From NCBI GenBank assembly GCA_905178155.1, contig CAJINV010000001.1, positions 7,547,506-7,611,505 of the forward strand: a DNA stretch of 64,000 nucleotides, written 5' to 3'. How positions within the stretch are numbered: the first letter of the stretch is position 1; every line of letters starts with the position of its first letter. Shown one piece after another: positions 25,115-60,989 of the stretch. Under the pieces are notes generated by a model, which was not told the origin of the DNA, made no database searches, and worked only from the letters and a program-made list of their open reading frames with translations. Both the position numbers and the translations under genes were made by a program. The stretch comes from Amoebophrya sp. A120 (taxonomy: Eukaryota > Protista > Dinoflagellata).

Positions 25115-28011
25115 ATGCCGAAGGACACGACCACGATGTCCTCTAGCAAGGGCGGCGCTCCTGTCTACCTCGCAAGCGCGGCGGAGAACGGGTCGGAGCC
25201 CGACACTGCCACTCACTCCGGCACCGGGACCAGCAGCGGCTCGGATGCAGAGGCCTACAGCTCGCCGGACCGGAAACAGAATACTTTCTACCCGCCAGCC
25301 AGGGGCGACGACAGCGAGGAGCGAGAGCCCCTGACGTCCAGCACCACTATAACGAGCGCCGCAACCCTGTCCTCGTCGTTTGTGGCGGGCGGGAATCCGA
25401 ATGACCAGAAGCTGAAGTTGCGGAATTTTGCCGCGCCAAGCAGCCCCACGGACGACGAGAAGGAGCGCGCTGACTATGCGGAGGAGGTGCTATTCAAGCC
25501 CTTTCGCTGGCTCTCAGACCTGAACGAGCTGTACGGCTTCCGGTTACTCTTCATGCTCTTCGTTGCACAGCACATCATGAAGGGCTTTGCAGGTACTTAA
25601 TTTTGCTATATTCATTCTTAGGAATTTTGGGAGCACCGGAGAGTCTACCCCAGACAGAAGTACTTACTTGAGATTTGTGTTTTTATCTTTTCATCGCGGA
25701 CTCAGTCAACATAGAACGAAGCAAAAGCTGGACATCCAAAATCGGTCAGGCACCTTCGTTGGGCAACCGGAGCGGTTTATCTACAAGTCGTATCACATCA
25801 GCGGTCCGCAGGTGCAGATTTACATGGGTGTGTCGGGGCTACCGTGGGCGCTGAAGCCCATCTTCGGGCTTCTTTCCGACCTGGTTCCGATTAACGGGTA
25901 CAACAAGCGGCCCTACATTCTGGGCGCCTCCTTCCTGGGTGTGACGTCGATGCTGTTTCTGGCGTTTCTGGAAGTCCCTGTGACCATGATCGTGATGTTC
26001 TTCTTCTGCATCGCCCTGCAGCGGTCGGTGTGCGACCTGCTGACGGAGGCGAAGTACGCCGAGGCACTGAAAAAGAAGCCGGAGCACGGGCCGGACTTGA
26101 TGACGTTTGTGTGGGGCGGAATCGAGATGTTTGGGCTGATCGCGCTCACTATCAAATGCAAAAATGTCTGGGTCTGGAAGAATGCAACATTTGTCATGCA
26201 CGTTTTGTATGACGTGTGAGGTCTGTGATGCATGCCCTAGCATCACAGATTCTGTGAGATCTTTTCCATGCCTTTTCCGCATGAGAAACTGCCTCTCGGC
26301 CTGCTCAAAAGTGAATAGCTTTAGTGGTGATCATGCAACACAGATTTTTGCATGATCCAGAATTAGCATGACAGGTTGCAACCTTCCAGACCCAGACATT
26401 TTTGCAATCCATACTCATGTGCGTCGGTCCGCTCGTGGAGTGGATCGGGCCACGGAAGCCGTACTTGCTGCTGATGCCGTATCAAATGTAAAAATGTCTG
26501 GGTCTGGAAGAATGCATGTTTGTCATGCTTGTCTGGCATGACTCTTAAATGTGTCATGCACGTTACCCAAGAGCTCCACTCTTCTGTGATGCAGGAACGC
26601 AGTTTGTCATGCAAAATAGGCAACACCTAGAAGCTCAGAAACTTGTCATGTTGAGCCAGCATTTGTGGCCTCATCATGAGACGCCACCCAGCATCACAAG
26701 TTTCCAGACCCAGACATTTTTACATTTGATATGCCGTTTGCGTCACTGATTCTGTACCCGACCTACAAAAATTACCTCGACGAGACCAAGCGACCGGCGG
26801 CGGAGACCCAGGCGCACCGGAAGAAGCTGGTCACGGAGAATAAGGAGGTGTTCATGCTCTGCATTCTGATCACCATCTGCACTTTGTGCATGACGGTGTC
26901 CGGCACCCTGTTTACGTCCGTCCGCCTGCACGCGTTGACGGCCCTAGTTGTTCTGGTGGTCATCCTCTTCTCCTTCTCTGTCATCCTGCGCCCGGAAATC
27001 GCAAAAATGAACGCATTCTACGTCTTGCAGGGAAGCTTAAGCATCGGCATCGGCGGGGCGTCATTCTACTTCTTCACCGACGGGCCAAAAGAGTATAGGA
27101 GCTGTTAAAAATGTAGTCGTGTTCAATGCGTTTGCGAGTTTTTCCAAAAATTTGTAACCGCCTACAACTAGAACTACAACTTCTGACATCTTCACTGTCA
27201 TGATTCCCTCTGCGTAACCAGCTCCGCAGAGAACTACATTTGATCGCAGGAGCTAAAACTCCTGACACCAACACCTCCAACCTGCAGGTATCCCACAGGA
27301 CCCCACTTTTCCACCTTCTTCTTCGTGACCGTCCTAGGCGTGACCGGTACATTGTGCTCCCTGTGCGGTTTGTGGTTTTACAACCGGTTCTTGAAGAACT
27401 ACAGCTACATCACTCTGTTGACGCTGACGAATCTGCTCGGGGTGGCGTTGTCCATTCTCGACATCGCGATTTTCACCCGTTCCAACGTGGCCTGGGGAAT
27501 CAGCGACCACCTGTTTGTCATGGGCGGGACGGTGTCCGCCAGCTTGATCGGGAACTGGCAGTGGATGCCCGGCGTGGTGATGCTCTCGCAGATGTGTCCC
27601 CGGAACATGGAGGCCACTTTGTACGCGCTGCTCGCCGGCTGCCACAATTTGGGCAACAGCATTTCCGAGTACCTCGGCGCGTTCGTGCTGGAGGAACTGG
27701 GCTGCACGCCCACCGGGCAGGGTGACGAAACCACGAAATTCGACAACCTGTGGGTGGCCGCTTTGATCCAAACCGTGGTGCCCATGTTCACGATCGCACT
27801 AATCCCCTACATGATTCCCAACAACAAACAGACAGACACAATTCTCGTCGACGCGCCGGACTCCGCAACAAAAGGGTCACTGTACAGCAAGTGGTTTCCA
27901 GACACCACAGGCTACCAGCAAGTTGCCCGCATGGAATCCCAATCCCCGAGATCATCGGGAGATCCAGGATCTAAAGATTCCCCAACTGCGGCACGAGGAG
28001 CCTCTGTGTGA
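25115..28011 (+). CDS. BT1-family folate/biopterin transporter (MFS), interrupted by two canonical introns and two introners
   Basis: LPWALKPIFGLLSD..PINGYNKRPY and MCPRNMEATLYALLAGCHNLG; GT-AG introns 25593-25749 and 27093-27287; removing the introners gives GLIAL(M/T)CVGPLVEWIGPRKPYLLLMPFASLILYP. Confidence 0.93.
26150..26413. mobile_element. Introner/MITE-like element, family A (divergent copy), 264 bp
   Basis: Left TATCAAATGCAAAAATGTCTGGGTCTGGAAG, right CTTCCAGACCCAGACATTTTTGCAATCCATA; flanks CTCAC/CTCAT (5-bp TSD, 1 mismatch); sits in a coding exon. Confidence 0.9.
26480..26731. mobile_element. Introner/MITE-like element, family A, 252 bp
   Basis: Perfect 30-bp TIR TATCAAATGTAAAAATGTCTGGGTCTGGAA / TTCCAGACCCAGACATTTTTACATTTGATA; TSD TGCCG (26475-79, 26732-36). 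Confidence 0.95.
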
Positions 28012-30169
28012 AGCATCCATAAAAACTAGACGGGCCGCTGCCACGGCACACAGCTCCTGTCATAAGATTTTTTGCAACGAGAACTTTTTCTTCCTTTAAG
28101 ATTGATAGTACCGAGGTTTTGAATGGGTTTCGCATTACCTTGCCACATAGATAAATTGCAGAATAACATGCGCAGGCACACGTCTGCTATTCATTCCAAG
28201 AATACAGTATTGTAATAACTACTGATACGCAGTCGCAGCTCGCGACGTCGGGCTTTTCTTGAGAGCTATTTCCGCGGCATACAGACGCCTTTTTGCGTCT
28301 GATTGCTTCGCGCTGCATGCGCTTGGCTTAGCTTTGAGAATAAAGATAAATGATCGCTTTTATCGAGCTGTTTTTGCACAGATAGAACTTCATTCGAGGC
28401 TGTCGGCAAGATTAAGATTTATCGAGCTTCATGATATAACTGGCCACCTTCGAAACTCAGAACTTCTTCGGCTGTATGACCACCTTTTTTCGATATGGCC
28501 TTCATTTTGAAGAAATTTCCCGATGCCGACCGAGAATCAAGATTGTCACTACAGTGAATTTCGGTTTTTGCCATACAAGAGAACTTGGGCTACCACGGAC
28601 GCTTAGCATTTCAATTTTCCGAAAGGACAAACAATACAGCGAGAATACGAAAGTTTATACTTGCGCTTTTTTAGCCGATATGGCGATAATTTTTGTCCTA
28701 TCGCGAGCAAGACCAAGATTGGGCAACTACATCGATTGCAAGTTATTGCAAACTCCACTGTTGCACTAGCTGTAGCCGGAGGTGTCCTCCTCCGTAATCG
28801 TTATCACCAGGTCGGTCTACTGCTTTGCGGAGCGATGGAGCGTTTTTTCTTCTCGACTCGTTTGCAGAAGCAGAGCTCTGTACATAGCTTGGTCGATGAG
28901 CGTTGTTGTCGAATTCATTCTTCGTGAGAGCTGTCGCTTGTCGATGTCTTGTGTCGTTGTAGACTTTTTCGTGGTCGTTTTGTCGTCGTTGTGTCGGTGC
29001 CGCGATCGTTCTTTATCGGAAACTTCATCACTTTCACCTATCCCTCTGTGGACGACACTGCGATTCGAAAGACAAAGACTACGAGCCCCCTTCCGTGGGG
29101 AGTGCTGCGAAAATGTATCGCGGCGAAACAAGATGAGGCCTAGGGTGGAGGTCGATATTTTTGAGGCAGTTGTTTCCGTACTGCACTGATATTTACACCA
29201 CGACTTCGCCCGGAGGAGAATCTAGGTAAGGACATTTCCTGATCAGCTCGTCGCGCGTTTGTCTCTCGAACCTTCGCGATCCAGCTCCGGGGCCGGGAAA
29301 CAAAAGCAGAGTTCTTTGAGTCACCAGGCCCGAATCTGAGCTGCAGCGCAGAAATTCAGGGAGAGTTGGTTGCACGACTGAGAAGTGGAAATCAGTGAAG
29401 CGCGCTTTCTCGGTTTCTCGTAGCGGAAGCAGAGAGCAGGAGTAAGTAGCATTTCTTGACCCGCGCGATCTGCTGCTCAGGAACGCAGGGAGATTCCAGT
29501 CGATCAGTAAGTGTGGGTCTGGCTGTAAAAATACATACCGATTGTTTTGGCAGCCGGAAAGACCGATTCTTTGTTGAGCAAACGAGCGGGTCCGCGACAC
29601 CAGTACGAACTTCTTGTTGAATCGTGGAACTAGGGAACAAGAAGAAGCGCGACCTACTTCACCCGGCAATAACGGAGTGTAGGTTTGCTTCCCAAAAAGG
29701 AGACCCAGTCTTCGTCTGCGTTGCTACCTGAAACGAGACACGCCGCCCTGATTCAGAAGGTCATTGCGCTTTCTGGGTATCAAGATTTGCCGCTCACATC
29801 AGAGATCGACTACGCGATCACCACAATCCCGAACGGAGATTTTTTTCAAGTTTTTTCTAACGCTTCGCGTTCTTGGAAGCGGGACGAGCAAGCTGCAGTG
29901 AGCGCAGGATCAACCTGTTCTTCTAGAAGTAGCTGTGGGCTTAGAAGAAAGTCGTACTTTCGTATTAAGAAACGCGGAGGAGCGCAGTCGGTCTAACCGA
30001 CCTGGCCAGCCTTGGCGAATTTTCAAGCTAGGCGTGTCTGCCTGTACATCGCCGGAATCCAGCAGTAGAGGCAGCATCTTCTAAGGATCGCAACAAGACT
30101 GCTAAACGCGTACTACTAGCTGACACATCTTCAACTCGGAGCCCGTTTTTCTTGCAACCGTGCGGCAAG

Positions 30170-33100
30170 ATGAACAAGGGCAGGAAGAAGGATGACTTCG
30201 AACCCGCCGTGCCGGCGGATGCGTTCGACCAGCTGTCTATCAAATGCAAAAATGTCTGGGTCTGGAAGAATGCATGTTTGTCATGCTTGTCTGGCATGAC
30301 TCTTAAATCTGTCATGCACGTTACCCAAGAGCTCCGCTTTTCTGGATGCAGGAACGCAGTTTGTCATGCAGAATAGGCAACACCTAGACGCTCAGAAACT
30401 TGTCATGCTGAGCCAGCATTTGTGGCCTCATCATGAGACGCCACCCAGCATCACAAGTTTCCAGACCCAGACATTTTTATATTTGATACTGTCCCGGGAT
30501 TTCCAGGAGGTCATGGAGGAGCTCACGGGCGAGGAAACTATCAAAAGGAAAAATCCCCCCACCCCATATCGAAATGGAAATCTGTGATGCGGGATTTGTG
30601 TACACAAATTGGCTTTCTATTGCAGGAAGGCATCGCGGCCAGATCCCCAGGCTAGGTAGGGCCGTATCGGTCTAGTTGTTCAGCATGGCAAACGGCTGCT
30701 CTTTAGGCCCAGCAGCATGACAAATCGCCTCTGTAAAGGGGGCGAAGCTTTTGCCCTTGTCTTCTTGCAAGACAGATGCGATTTGTGACCTGAAATCAGC
30801 AACGAAATTTTCGGAAACATGCCTTTTCGATATGGGGAGGGGGGATTTTTCCTTACAATAGAAACCCTGGAATCTTTTCGCGTGGAATACGAGAAGCTCC
30901 ACGGAGCCTTGGCCACCAGTCACGAATCAGAAAAGAAGCTCATCACCAAGTGCAAGGCACTGAACCAAGAAATTGTGCAAAACGCCGTGAAGGTAGATTT
31001 TTTGGAGAAGGAGCTGCTTTGTCGCGGTGCATTTCGTTGTCGTGTTAAAGTTTGCATTTTGATTCTTGCCGGAACGGTATAGAACAGCACGAAGAAAATG
31101 AAAAAGCTGACGGAAGTAGGCATTTCTTTATCTTTGTACTCCTGTTTCATCAGGTACAAACCGCTCTGAAGCTTTCTTACGAGGACCAGCAGAGAATAGC
31201 AGCACTAAAAAAGGAGGTCGAGCGCGCATGGCGAATGGTGGAGACCAGCCACGAGAAAGAACAGCGAGCCTCGGACTCAATCACCGTTTTGAAGACCGAG
31301 GCGGACAACTTGACAAAGATAGTGGAGCAAGGTAAGATGAGTGTAGTTAAATGCTCTTTTCCAGCTGAAGATGCAGCGAACTGCGTTGAACCCTCGTCGA
31401 CGTTTACAAAACCAAACTCATTCATCTACAGGTGCTGGAAAAAGCGTCAACCAGGAGCAGATGGTAATACAGCTCAGCCAAGAGAAAGTGGACTTCAGCA
31501 AGACCCGTGATTTGCTCCAGACTCAAGTCAACAACCTTGCAGCAGCAAAAACTGAGTTCGAGGTATAGCGAAATTCTCATGGCGATCGTGATTGAAAAAA
31601 GGAAATTCCCATTGCGCAAAAGGAAAATGTAAATGAGCAAGCGTGAAAAAAAAACTCAGGCACAAAAGCAAAAATCTTCAACAGGAAAAAACGGAGCGAG
31701 CGCAGCTGGAGCTGCAAAATCAAGCCTCCGAGGTGGTGCGACTACAGCAGGAAATGGCAAGAAGGAAGACGCAGGGCGAGGATTCACAAAAACGAAAAGC
31801 AGAGCTTAATGAAGAACTCACGGTATGAAAATAAAATAGAAATTTAGTGCATTTTCGAGACAGGCATTAGCTTTACATCGAGGCTGCTTGCGGTCCTTGC
31901 GTCAGTTGCTTGCCTCCTATCGTATGAAGAAAGCGGAAACCTTCAAACAATCGAAAACAGTCCGTCCGCCTAAAAATAGACGACATGACGAAGGAGGTTA
32001 ATCAGAACAAAATTAGTCTGGACGAACAGAAAGCCGTCATGCGCGAGCTCGAGCAAAAAGTAAAGGCTGAAACGGAGCAAGTTGCCGAAGGTAGTGACAA
32101 TGAGTTAATTATTGCTCTCGCTAGTAGTTTTGGACAGTTACAGTTTATTAACGCTCATCGCACTTGCAATGGTGAAAACGAATCCATGCTTCCTCGTAGT
32201 GAAAATTTTTCCCTTGCGGACATAAATCACAGGCTACAGCCGGCAAAACAAGCTTGAGGACGACATCAAGAAGAGGAAGAAGCTGACCACCGAGGAACAG
32301 GCCATGAAGTCGAAGCTCGGTGAGGAGCAGGCCGGCTTCGAACAAAAAATAGATGAGTTGAACAAGGAGAGGGCGTATTTTCGAAGGCAAAAAAAGCTTG
32401 CGGACGACGAATCCAAGGAGATCGAGGAGTTCAGGCACAATCTCGCAGAAGACAGTAAGTAGCACTTTTGCTTTTGATGAAGAAGTGCACTTTGATCTGA
32501 ATTCGTCTGAATGATAATCATGCAGGTTTTCTAGTTCTATCACATATGTAATGCTTCGCCATTTTTTTCTTCCGACAAAAACAAAACAGAGAAGGTCGAG
32601 GAAGGGATAATAGCAGAGTTGAAAGCGGAGGTGGCTAGTCTGAAAGCCGAGGCCACCGACTGCCGAAAACAGGCCGACACCGACCAGAAATATACCAACG
32701 AGATCACCCGGGAGCGCGATCTCCTGACGAAAAATGTCGCGAGCGGGGACGATCGGGGTAAGAAACAAGCGGAGATGGTCGCGGGGCACGAAAGGCAGGC
32801 AGAGGAGCTCGAGAAAGAAGTTTTGCGGTGGAAGCTCACCACGCAGAACACGAACAGCAGAATAGAGAGTCTGGAGGCCATGAAGGATAAATACCAGCGG
32901 GAGTTGACAGAAGCCTATCAAAAGTAGTTTTATTTCGCTTGTTTTTTTTTTCGTGAATCACAATCTTCACTTCACTACAGGCGGGTAAAGGTGGCATGCG
33001 GAAGAGCCCCTACTCTCTCGCCTGGGCGGTAGGTGTAGAGCTGGTTGTCGGTTGAACACAGTACAACTTCCAACACCAATCAGGTTCAACCAAGGCCAGG

Positions 33101-40251: not shown

Positions 40252-40882
40252 GTGTTTCAGGGAACAAACGATGTAGGGTTTTTCGAAACCACCGATGTGA
40301 AAAGAAATTTTGAACTGTTTTTTTGTTGTTTAGTTTCGACAACGACCGCAGAATTCATTGTGAAAGTGTACACGACAGTTGCTTTTTAGTTGCTACGGCA
40401 TGATTGAAGGTCATACATTCTTTTTGTGATTGAAGGTCACGGGTCATGATTGAGGGTCATAACATTACGTGGAATTCCGGGAACATTTTAGTAGTTTTTT
40501 CGTTGTATTGTCCCTGAATAAGGGATAGAGTTTCTGAATTCATGACTGAACGTAAACGACAAGGATGTTAATAATATGCCTAGACTTTAGTTGTTTCTGC
40601 ACGTTCCAACGGACTGTAAGAAGAGCTACATTCATACGGATCTTCTCATGAATTCAAAATTTTGCACGATGCACAGAATACCTTCTTGTGCCTTTGACGT
40701 TTCAGGAACTTCATTGGAAGACGTACTTGCACGACTGCGAAGCCGTGGATAACAGTATTTCATACTAGCAAAGCCAGCTTCGCCTGGAAGTAGGCATCAG
40801 AAGAAACGCAAATGTCAGTTAGCATCATCGACATCTAGATAACAAATCAAAAAGAAAAAAGCGCCGGCCCCAAAACAAGGCC

Positions 40883-41437
40883 GCGGCGCGCCCAATGTGG
40901 TCGTCGCGGCTCCGGCGCGCCCAGATTGGTCGCTCCATTTCCGGCGCGCCCAGTCTGGTCGTCCCGGCTCCGGCGCGCCCAGAGTGGTCGCCCCAGCTCC
41001 GGCGCGCCCAGAGTGGTCGCCCCGGCTTCGGCGCGCCCAATCTCATCAACCCGGCGCCGAACGGCCGTTGGACAACTTCTGGCCGTCCGACGGCCGTCGG
41101 ACGACTCTGGGTTGTCCGACGGCCGCCGGACGACTTTCGGCCGTCGGACAACTTCTGGCCGTCCAACGGCCGTCGGACAACTTCTGGCCGTCCAACGGCC
41201 GTCGGACGACTTTTGGCCGTCCGACGGCCGTCGGACGACTTTTGGCTGTCCGACGGCCGTCGGACAATTTTTGGCCGTCGGACGACTTTTGGCTGTCCGA
41301 CGGTCGTCGGACGACTTTCGGCCGTCGGACAACTTCTGGCCGTCCGACGGCCGTCGGACGACTTTTGGCTGTCCGACGGCCGTCGGACAACTTTTGGCCG
41401 TCCGACGGCCGTCGGACGACTTTTGGCTGTCCGACGG
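40883..41437. repeat. GC-rich composite satellite: ~30-bp units with GGCGCGCC, then units built on the 18-bp palindrome GTCCGACGGCCGTCGGAC; runs into an assembly gap
   Basis: Direct reading of the tandem units; N run starts at 41438. Confidence 0.95.
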
Positions 41438-41727
41438 NNNNNNNNNNNNNNNNNNNNNNNNNNNNNNNNNNNNNNNNNNNNNNNNNNNNNNNNNNNNNNN
41501 NNNNNNNNNNNNNNNNNNNNNNNNNNNNNNNNNNNNNNNNNNNNNNNNNNNNNNNNNNNNNNNNNNNNNNNNNNNNNNNNNNNNNNNNNNNNNNNNNNNN
41601 NNNNNNNNNNNNNNNNNNNNNNNNNNNNNNNNNNNNNNNNNNNNNNNNNNNNNNNNNNNNNNNNNNNNNNNNNNNNNNNNNNNNNNNNNNNNNNNNNNNN
41701 NNNNNNNNNNNNNNNNNNNNNNNNNNN
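41438..41727. other. Assembly gap (290 N)
   Basis: Run of n. Confidence 1.
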
Positions 41728-41732
41728 GAAGT

Positions 41733-41836
41733 CGAAACTGAAACTCAAACTCTAACTTAATTCTCAAACTCAAACTCAATGTTGAAACTCAAACTCAATG
41801 TTGAGACTCAAACTCAATGTTGAAACTCAAACTCAA
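41733..41836. repeat. AAACTC-based tandem repeat (higher-order unit AAACTCAAACTCAATGTTG)
   Basis: Direct reading. Confidence 0.9.
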
Positions 41837-42742
41837 GCTGACATTTGCATTCTTTTCTGCCAAGGTAGTTAATATCTATACCATGATAAGATTAGAAAAC
41901 TAACCTCTGAGCGTCAAAATCAAAATTTCAACACGACATAAATTTATTCACGGGCCGTGCTGGTTGCGTGACCGTGACTGTGCCATGTGTTTTTGGACAT
42001 CCTTCTTGTAGTTCCTTTATTGGTATTCTTATTCATTGCTTTCGTCGACGCACAGTGGGCCGGGTCAGAGATTTTTGCCTCGTCGGTTTTTTTTTCGTTT
42101 TTGAGTGGTCGTGATCGAGAGCGAGGTCACCACACAAGCGCACCTGCGTGCGAAAGTGGAACGAGTCACATGTTTCGTTCGCGAGGTCTGAGTGGTGTCG
42201 TTTTTGAATATTTCGATAGCAAGAAAAAGTGTGACTGAAAGGGGAAAGAGGAAGAATGTCGTGCTGCACAAATTGCAAAAATGCTACTCCAGAAGTTGCA
42301 GCAAGTAGGAAGTCCTCTAGCCATAAGCAAAATTGTTGTCCTTCTGTCTCTTTTTCTCTCTCTTTCTCAACGAGTGGAGCTCTAGTTGCCTCGCATTGCA
42401 AACGAACAGGCAGAACTGTTTACGTCGTCTGTGTGGAGGAAACAAACCAAATGAAGCTAAATGAAAAACAACAGGAGCATTCGTGTAGAACTAAGACGAG
42501 CTTTCGTGTGGTATTCCCCAGACAAGCTCGCAGACTCCTCAAATTGCATTCATATCTTGGCTCCACATCCACAACATAATGATTTTGGCTGAAATGAACT
42601 GTACTAGGGGCTTTGTGAGAAGCGCGCATTAGGTTTTATGACAACTGCATTTGATGCGGTGCCTTTGCGTTCTAGTGTGAAAGCACCAAACAACTCACTT
42701 TGAATTTATTTATTGTCCGCAAGTCAAAAGGACGAATACGAA

Positions 42743-58186: not shown

Positions 58187-60989
58187 ATGAGTTGGGCTCG
58201 GAGCCAGCCCACGGGGCGGCTGCCTCCCGCAACGCGAACCACCGGTGCGAACAAGGGGGGTTCCGCCAAAGCGTCTGGTTTCAGCCGCACTCCAAGCCCG
58301 TCCTACAATCCGGGAAACCTCCGCGGACCGAAGGCAGCTACTGGCGCGGCCGCGCGGGGCGGCGTTTCGCGAGGCGCCACGTCAAGTCACACGGCCCTGG
58401 CTAACAAGCCCATCCCGCGTAGCGGAAACTTGAAGCAGTACTGGGAGCAGGATCTGTCGACCACTTTGATCCCGATGCGCGATCGCCTCGCGCCGATCGC
58501 GCGGAAGGCCGAACTCGACCAGAACGACCTGATGCACGCCGTCTGCGCGAAGAAGAAGAAGACCGACGCAGCGGAGGCGGAACGGGATAACGCCGAGGAA
58601 GAGTATCTCGCCTTCATATCGGAACAGGCCGCCTTTTGGAACGACTTGACCGAAGTGATCGCCAATCTTGAGGAGGAGAATGAAGCTAATGGGCCACAGG
58701 TGATCAACAGATGTTTATTCAGATCGTAACACAAGTACAGTGATTTCGCTCTGAGGAGGACGGACGCGAGGTTTTTTTTCGGTCAGCTGTTTCTTGTGAG
58801 GTATCCGTCTGAATGAATGACTCTGAAAATGAAAATGAACCAAATCAGAAAAGCTGCAAGTATCGAATTCATACCTCAGACTCGCCAGCTCCACGCCGCC
58901 AGTGTGGCTACCGAGGACGAGATACTGGATCTGCGGAAGGATAAGGAAGTGGCGAAGGAACGGGCGGACCACGCGAACAAGCGTTCCAAGCAGATGATTG
59001 CCGACATGGACGGATTCGGCAAGGAGATGAAGAAGCAAGAGGACGTCCTGAAGGAGGAGCGGAAACGCGCCACCGCGATGGCCGACAGCCTGCAGGAGGA
59101 CCGCGCCCACCTGACCGACCTGCGACACATGTGCCATTGCATCAGGAACAACGTCCAGGTCTTCTACGTGGGCAATTCCTGTCTCTCGTCCTCCTCCGCC
59201 TCGAGCGGCTGCGTCGCACCCTCGTCGTCGCCGATGAAAAGTACAGTTTTTCTTTGCGCCTACTTGTTGGAACTTGATTCGCCTGGTATGCATGTTCATT
59301 TGTTATGGTAGTGTTCTTCTGACTCTGCCTAAAACTACATTATGACCCCAATCTCTCTCGTCATTCACATCAGTTTCGGGCACGACTCCTCCGGCCGCGA
59401 GCCATGCTGGTACTACCGCGAACGGCACGCCGCGGGACCCGGCGCGCGCCGGGTCCGGCAAGGTGGTGAGTCCGGACGCGCTGGTGCAGCTTTCCTACAT
59501 GAACCGCGGCTGCGAAAGCAGCAAGGACAACTGGGTAAAGCCAGACGAGCACTGGTACAAGGACGAACTGTACCTGGAGCACTACACCACGGCGGAGTTG
59601 TATCGCACGAAAATTATAAAACTGTCTCCGTCTCAACTTGTAAAGCGGGTGTTGTTCCTTGAGACACTTTTGTGTCATGCTGAATGGACGTCGAAAGGTG
59701 TCTTTCGTAAGGCGTCTTGTTTTTGTGCCTGACGCAACATCACAAGTTTTGCGTGTCACGACGCTGGCCGAGTTCGTGTTTTATGCTGACCGAATTTGTG
59801 TTGCTGAGTCTGCAAATCAATATTTGAGACTGAAACTACATTTTTTTCGTACGATAAGTTGGTGGACTGCGGGCCCTGGGACGCGCACTACCAGTACATT
59901 AAGCAGCTGGAGGAGGAGTCCGCAACGGAGGACGTCGAGGACGAGGATGAGGACATGGATGCGTCTTCAGGCGGGGCGGACGAGGACCCTCGCAGCCCCG
60001 AGCCCAAGCTCACCGACGAGGAGCACCAGGAGCGGTTGGCACTGGGCCGGATCGCGGAGTTCGTGCTGCAGACGGAGCTACCCTACATCCGGGCCCGCAT
60101 GGAGCACTGCCACGGCTCGGCCGTGGTGCTGTTCTTCAAAAACAACCATAATTTTCCCGCCGCTTCGTCATCATCCAGTGCAGGAGTAGGAGATGTTTTC
60201 GCCAGCGGTGGGAACAACAACACGAACAACAGCAGTCAAGACAAGAGAGATGTTGAACCTGCGAACAGGGGCTTTTTGTTCGACACGGTGGCAAAGAATT
60301 TCGAGAAGTGCTTCCGCAACAATGCCACGCGCGAAAAGGACTACATCGTGCGGCAGCAGCCGTTCACGACGGGGGCCGGGCAGCCGGTGCTGACCAACAG
60401 CAAGCAGAAAGCGGCGCTCCGGCAGCAGATGCGGCAGGAGGCTGACCAGTACGTGTTCGAGGGGTATCGGGCAAGCAAGGTGAGCGCCAACCACATCTGT
60501 CTGCTCGGCAGCCGGAAGCGCAGCGCGCCCGCCGCCACCGGTGAGGACGTGGCGGAAGCCGCGATGAACCCCAGCGAGCAGAGCAGCTGCAGCCTGATTC
60601 AAGTAGACAGCGAGGAGGACCAGAAGGCGATTTGTGAAATCTTGCAGTCTTCACTGGCGACGAAAAAGAGCACCAGTTCTGCGAACGCCATGGCGTCGTG
60701 GGGGAACAACTCCAGTAGGGCCAGTGTGGATGGGCCGTTGAGCGGAGATGGCGCTGGTTCGCCGAGTGGCCAGGTCTTGCGGTTCCTGCGCCAGTTCTTC
60801 AGTGCGCCGGGAAAAGCAGTTTACGTCGCGATCATTGCAGAAAATCCGACGGTCCCCGTCCTCAGCCAGGCGCTGCGGCTGCGCGCCCTAGATTCGCGCG
60901 GCGGCCCCGCCCTCACAGAGCACGACCGGAGGGGAGACGCCTGCAAGGGGACAACGGAACACGAAAGAAAAAATGTTGTGAATACTTGA
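58187..60989 (+). CDS. Hypothetical coiled-coil protein; GT-AG introns 58700-58879 and 59286-59373 plus one introner (3' end uncertain)
   Basis: In-frame joins by eye; removing the introner gives HYTTAELVDCGPWDAHY. Confidence 0.7.
59601..59856. mobile_element. Introner/MITE-like element, family C, 256 bp
   Basis: Left TATCGCACGAAAA, right TTTTCGTACGATA (12/13 complementary), inner GTCTCAA/TTGAGAC pair; TSD AGTTG (59596-600, 59857-61); in-frame stop inside. Confidence 0.88.

Follow-up and report, generated by a model that had tools for sequence, protein, structure and literature searches.

A mismatched target-site repeat as a marker of the splice register in an Amoebophrya sp. A120 introner, with a likely cut one nucleotide before and four nucleotides after the element

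The introner elements of Amoebophrya sp. A120 are reported in 29,850 copies of about 240 nt with non-canonical ends (Farhat et al., 2021, PMC7789003). According to the text of that study, their inverted repeats start with TAT, followed by seven looser letters and AAA, and direct repeats of 3–5 nt flank them. No clear splice signature is described, and the position of the border ‘remains unknown’ (PMC7789003) because the flanking repeats hide it. About 65% of Amoebophrya introns are reported to be removed without GT-AG. A120 retains 83 of 89 spliceosomal proteins along with U2, U4, U5 and U6, while U1 was not detected and the text names no putative transposase (PMC7789003). In A25, the element ends are described as TTA followed by two purines (PMC7789003). 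A marker of the splice register bears on how Amoebophrya splices such introns, seemingly with neither GT-AG ends nor U1. Such a marker is not a new idea, as non-slidable junctions have served to solve the borders of the nonconventional introns of Euglena (Nomura et al., 2025, PMC12501133). For A120, a search of mainly open-access literature, covering the text of PMC7789003, found no study fixing the register.

The element described here lies at 26150–26413 on the forward strand of a 64,000-nt stretch of A120 DNA (the window). It interrupts a gene for a 672-residue transporter of the BT1 folate/biopterin family (25115–28011, forward strand; PF03092, E 2e-77), which carries two introners and two GT-AG introns (25593–25749 and 27093–27287, both skipped by RNA contigs). 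The host exon matches, at 100% identity, the protein P0001, labelled Amoebophrya sp. A120 by its source. The target-site repeat reads CTCAC on the left (26145–26149) and CTCAT on the right (26414–26418), and these flanks, together with the ATA retained at the right end (26413), are as the preliminary description had read them.

With a length of 264 nt, the element starts with TAT and ends with ATA. Its terminal inverted repeats (26150–26188 and 26375–26413) pair at 34 of 39 positions without gaps; if a gap of 2 nt is allowed, 42 of 50 positions pair, which makes the earlier estimate of an imperfect stem of about 50 bp a fair one. The interior (26189–26374) is predicted to form several small hairpins, and the RNA fold of the whole element reaches −130.8 kcal/mol (z −10.6 against shuffles) with the terminal 7–8 nt unpaired. 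Stops occur in all three forward frames (7, 1 and 5). When the bases of the window were shuffled ten times, each shuffle contained 0 pairs of arms matching at 15 or more of 20 positions with a repeat of at least 4 of 5 letters.

The interior is only 54–63% identical to those of the second and third introners of the window, which are 96% alike, in agreement with the different interior first described. The right end had also been called decayed, a view that has to be given up. Its last 10 nt are found at 21 of 474 element ends (its own counted), and a like interior occurs in 46 of the other 236 elements, with up to 90% identity over ~270 nt. The recurrent end and the common interior type place this copy in a subfamily, and the right end is a variant of that subfamily instead of a product of decay.

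Each property by which A120 introners are defined was found at this locus: a non-GT-AG intron removed from RNA at 26144→26414, TAT-N7-AAA at both element ends, a direct repeat over the junction (4 of 5 letters), and repetition in the genome of the host strain A120. The terminal inverted repeats, the target duplication of fixed length and the lack of coding capacity are those of a MITE or non-autonomous TIR transposon. The G(T/C)..AG ends of U2-type introns are absent, the ends being CT..CA at the register proposed below. The element is an Amoebophrya A120 introner, and the T of its right-hand repeat is kept in RNA.

Four other introners lie on the forward strand of the window, all with perfect repeats. 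The second (26480–26731, repeat TGCCG) shares the BT1 gene and is spliced; its register is hidden. A coiled-coil gene contains the third (30238–30488, CTGTC) and the fourth (30539–30860, GAAAC), which belongs to another family, and both are spliced. The fifth, also of another family (59601–59856, AGTTG), is located inside an open frame. Upstream of where the coiled-coil gene probably starts, RNA contigs cover ~1.1 kb without a joint (29069–30170). Elsewhere, a tandem array rich in GC, built of units of 11, 18 and 29 nt whose cores are palindromic (40879–41466), is followed by a 19-nt array (41728–41841). Run X10, which bears the same species label, has 27 raw reads with 90–95% identity to element interiors (26331–26418 and the arms) that cover no exon, and a more distant relative may share the element family.

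Contigs from runs X1 (depth 22.4) and X4 (depth 325.1) connect 26144 directly to 26414; four letters can be assigned to either side, and the contigs therefore read CTCAT. Both runs are RNA by guess and come from a single study as two samples, and rare variants are lost in contigs. The same contigs also skip the two GT-AG introns of the BT1 gene and the neighbouring introner. It had been anticipated that keeping the whole left copy would encode T at this codon, and that a cut within or before it would encode M, both of which hold the 672-residue frame. The proposed check of the cDNA base comes out in favour of M: the contigs keep the right-hand T, and the spliced joints translate exactly to P0001 (L-M-C), from which the left-copy version differs by its T. 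In the three closest homologues this column holds L, which is nearer M than T. Sequencing error, one of the refutations that had been considered, does not account for the mismatch, since the left C recurs in a contig of run X6 (run kind not on record), unspliced here, and the right T in the RNA contigs. The X6 piece (25654–26163) has one other letter (25835) and 3 gaps, and 26149 is 14 nt from its end.

The cut falls ahead of letter 5 in the left copy. At 26145–26418, RNA alone permits every intron start from 26145 to 26149, and no register at this locus yields a GT..AG intron. If the register is counted as the number of left-hand letters kept, the mismatch does expose the surviving letter, as the preliminary description had hoped of a cut marker, while this element by itself allows registers 0–4. 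The same description spoke of the repeat copy that survives excision; the letter is indeed marked, but the process is RNA splicing and not DNA excision, and neither copy would survive whole.

Splicing is indicated by the absence of the element from the spliced RNA contigs and its presence in the unspliced run X6. Direct repeats combined with a hairpin are a known signature of template-switch artefacts, and ‘TA’-like ends recall the DNA elimination of ciliates. The joint might accordingly reflect a switch of reverse transcriptase across the hairpin repeats, or an element excised from DNA, to which we give hardly any credence. The element, with stops in every forward frame, sits within a conserved gene. 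An enzyme arriving from the 3′ side would tend towards right-hand letters at position 4, where the left letter is kept, and X6 has no joined form at any of four elements, an observation to be read with the fact that contigs show presence and not absence.

A search of metagenome contigs with a 20-base arm pattern gave at least 151 loci (L001–L151), 80 of them with wide flanks. The invariance of TAT in this collection is by construction of the search, and it is reported independently in PMC7789003. The source of these contigs is near-identical to A120: the two exons compared with A120 proteins are 100% identical to them, and another stretch of 141 residues (L001) differs by one amino acid. Among the matches listed, together with the window, there are 237 distinct elements, of which 189 have perfect repeats, 39 have one mismatch and 9 have two. 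In the collected loci, exact 5-mer repeats flank 181 of the 215 elements whose repeat matches at 4 or more of 5 letters. With a one-letter mismatch in ~17% of elements (39/228, selected loci), thousands of natural markers are to be expected among the 29,850 reported elements. Well-oriented single mismatches are spread evenly over the five repeat positions (6, 6, 7, 7 and 7), and the arms of mismatched elements are a little weaker (15.8 vs 17.0 of 20), as expected of older copies. Elements resembling the second introner of the window run along the gene in 10 cases and against it in 7, so both orientations occur. Strand assignment by the masked model was wrong for at least one element (L001 1790, low margin), which puts some error on the oriented counts. 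Codon positions 3, 2 and 1 receive the first letter of the repeat in 75, 54 and 47 elements, respectively (p 0.027), a skew that at register 4 makes phase-0 introns commonest. The fourth letter of the arm is C or G in 132 and 44 elements at the gene-5′ end vs 106 and 64 at the 3′ end (p 0.015, uncorrected).

Seven of the 48 mismatched elements, picked by testability, were tested for the letter kept. The element at 26150–26413 is the sole position-5 case, and there RNA keeps the right letter. The left letter is kept in the other six, as indicated by one RNA contig for two elements and by conserved residues for four. The former are in L001 (gene on the reverse strand), where an X1 contig of depth 4.8 keeps left letters at positions 4 and 2 across joints with one and three letters fitting either side. 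At position 2, the V of P0040 and the I of the A25 homologue agree with the left letter. This RNA test comes from one low-depth contig in one of four runs, its position-4 change is silent, and it sets RNA from A120 beside DNA from a near-identical source; the strain from which the RNA came may lack these mismatches. The X1 contig has 2 other letters in a 56-nt piece (L001 2056–2111) that stops at the repeat of another element, which begins at 2112. Runs X2, X3 and X4 have no joint at the L001 elements, and the double-mismatch element at L001 693–968 is without RNA cover in the runs compared.

The four remaining elements interrupt conserved codons. The junction at L030 268–571 has to encode K, the residue present in the A120 model and in three relatives, which requires the left letters at positions 2 and 4. 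A G in 5 of 5 aligned rows calls for the left letter at position 1 of L030 1795–2050. L070 667–876 interrupts a Rab1-like protein, and its junction codon is that of the P-loop lysine (residue 22 of 2rhd_A), again with the left letter, at position 3. For L040 1265–1530, the homologue P0075 has the left-hand E, likewise at position 3. Another prospective case, L038 (an EF-hand-like guess, position 4), was dropped as it had no Pfam match. Pfam searches of exon pieces gave matches in 5 of 27, none of them deciding a position-5 case.

Register 4, with the cut between letters 4 and 5, is the only fixed register that fits all seven tested elements. Since position 5 rests on one locus, 26145–26418 supplies the only upper bound; without that element, registers 4 and 5 both fit the remaining six. 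The element in the window allows 0–4 and the others allow 4–5, so that only together do they give register 4. From these sequence comparisons, a fixed register 4 appears quite probable: the exon would carry the left N1–N4 and the right N5, and the intron would read N5-TAT...ATA-N1..N4. At the BT1 locus, the excised intron would then be 269 nt long (26149–26417) with CT..CA ends. Letter 5 of the left copy (C, 26149) is removed from the mRNA and letter 5 of the right copy (T, 26418) is kept, letters 1–4 being presumably exonic on the left and intronic on the right. Under register 4, neither repeat copy survives whole; the mRNA would contain a hybrid of four left letters and one right letter, and any 5-bp duplication would be restored without a scar.

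As the six other elements permit 4 or 5, the whole left copy might be kept (register 5), with the T at the 26150–26413 locus made by C-to-U editing. C to T is the type of change that editing makes, and possible editing near 2–4% of intron boundaries is reported in the text of PMC7789003. This explanation is very unlikely, as editing must yield exactly the letter of the right copy, seemingly to completion in both X1 and X4, and the homologues favour M as the state before insertion.

A further reading is that the register varies by element or molecule, for instance by sliding to the nearest GT/AG-like letters, in which case the fit of the seven elements would be luck. The text of PMC7789003 calls the splice sites variable relative to the hairpin. 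With random registers, the chance of this seven-element pattern is 0.013, and some fixed register fits in 8.3% of simulations. A GT..AG intron at register 2 of L030 1795–2050 also agrees with its protein. Even so, all seven elements fit one register, 15 mismatches are at first or second codon positions, one of them at the P-loop lysine, and the repeats are without GT/AG enrichment, which together render variable cutting improbable. Third codon positions carry mismatches 2.4 times as often as the other two (18/295 vs 15/560, p 0.023). Variable cutting would favour such an excess; silent change of the exonic copy fits it as well, and alone accounts for about a twofold excess. For the exonic copy of other mismatches, tests of codon usage (20/35, p 0.25) and GC direction (15 vs 15) had no power.

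Where a junction is ambiguous, BLAT slides it. The published A120 junctions come from a study that names both BLAT and Hisat2, and 9 of the 9 top junction types have N-T donors, as register 4 predicts (PMC7789003, Table S4). Sliding the junctions of 140 elements to the best GT-AG match places 52 of them in the published top nine, vs 31 under a fixed register. Because sliding yields a similar list, Table S4 was downgraded as independent support. GG-AG and GC-AG are rarer in the published list than pure sliding predicts, which leaves a little support for register 4.

The junction letters are free of bias. Among 140 oriented elements with perfect repeats, N5 is G in 41 (41.1 expected) and N3N4 is AG in 12 (10.3 expected). 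A preference for canonical-like targets was considered and rejected, given that the repeats are biased towards none of N5=G, N3N4=AG and NNAGG. The lack of bias in the first base and the last two bases suggests that the cut is measured from the hairpin ends. At register 4, the 5′ end of the intron reads N-T-A-T-(C/G), and all six ordinary GT-AG donors seen begin with GTA. One element, L030 1490–1758, whose repeat is CCAGG, has the GT-AG ends of an ordinary intron when cut at register 4. In L030 1795–2050, it is the mismatch in the right copy that makes GT..AG at register 2, whether by chance or by drift towards the canonical form. The element ends and TT-xx junction calls of A25 have T+2 and A+3, apparently resembling a GTARR donor with +1 changed.

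The cut is likely placed at a fixed distance from the hairpin ends, 1 nt before TAT and 4 nt after ATA. In such a mechanism the stem would join both ends and serve as a ruler in place of U1 and acceptor recognition. N-T-A-T-(C/G) would substitute for the GTA donor through T+2 and A+3, leaving +1 and the last two bases free, and the symmetric ends would permit both orientations. The putative enzyme is the spliceosome, which we favour by a small margin. A spliceosome indifferent to the bases at +1, −2 and −1 would be out of the ordinary.

The same −1/+4 register might instead be set by a stem-guided nuclease and a ligase outside the spliceosome, as proposed for Euglena, where fixed spacers are measured from a paired motif and the authors suggest non-spliceosomal factors (PMC12501133). 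Splice positions without base preference, a strong stem and an undetected U1 are what such enzymes would lead one to expect. T+2 and A+3 match the GTA donors of the A120 genome, the TTA-R-R ends of A25 are also donor-like, and most of the spliceosome is retained in A120. These points, all of them indirect, make this main rival rather unlikely. Overall, we put at about 0.65 the probability of the reading in which an A120 introner is RNA-spliced with the right letter kept, its family being likely cut at −1/+4 and likely by a relaxed spliceosome.

We lean slightly towards the wider proposal that a ruler code needing no junction base splices tens of thousands of A120 introns, in either orientation and at any 5-bp target. 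If true, this code would explain the invasion and point to a splicing route without U1 or terminal G and AG. Public RNA reads can settle the A120 register genome-wide now. If the −1/+4 cut is fixed, searches for lariats or circles would have exact ends to work from, gene models could be set right, and the spacer code of Euglena would have a counterpart.

The class to which the element belongs is already published. The border was left open for A120 introners in that work, whereas here the mismatched repeats make −1/+4 the likely register. In Fritillaria borealis, MITE-derived introns are described as removed by an adapted U2 spliceosome, with preferred ends (AG-AC, AG-AT) and U1 both kept (PMC13326754; PMC11282704); A120 has neither preferred letters nor a detected U1. 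The introners of Micromonas, Aureococcus, Symbiodinium and Polarella are reported to be MITE-like with a target-site duplication, and to have splice sites at a fixed position relative to the element, as in A120 (PMC11282704; bioRxiv 2020.10.14.339549). These algal and core-dinoflagellate introners carry or recruit G(T/C/A) and AG, which constrains their targets, in contrast to the 5-bp target of A120. In Euglena, the code for nonconventional introns is N3CDG...CH′GN5-6|R (Nomura et al., 2025, PMC12501133). This signature is absent from the element in the window at register 4, where TCA occupies +4 to +6 and T is the first letter of the next exon. Euglena also prefers a purine after the 3′ junction, whereas N5 of A120 is without bias, and its spacers are of 3 and 5–6 nt from another motif, compared with 1 and 4 nt in A120. 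If the A120 register is fixed, both systems combine paired ends with fixed unequal spacers, and in Euglena, as in A120, the spacer on the donor side is the shorter one.
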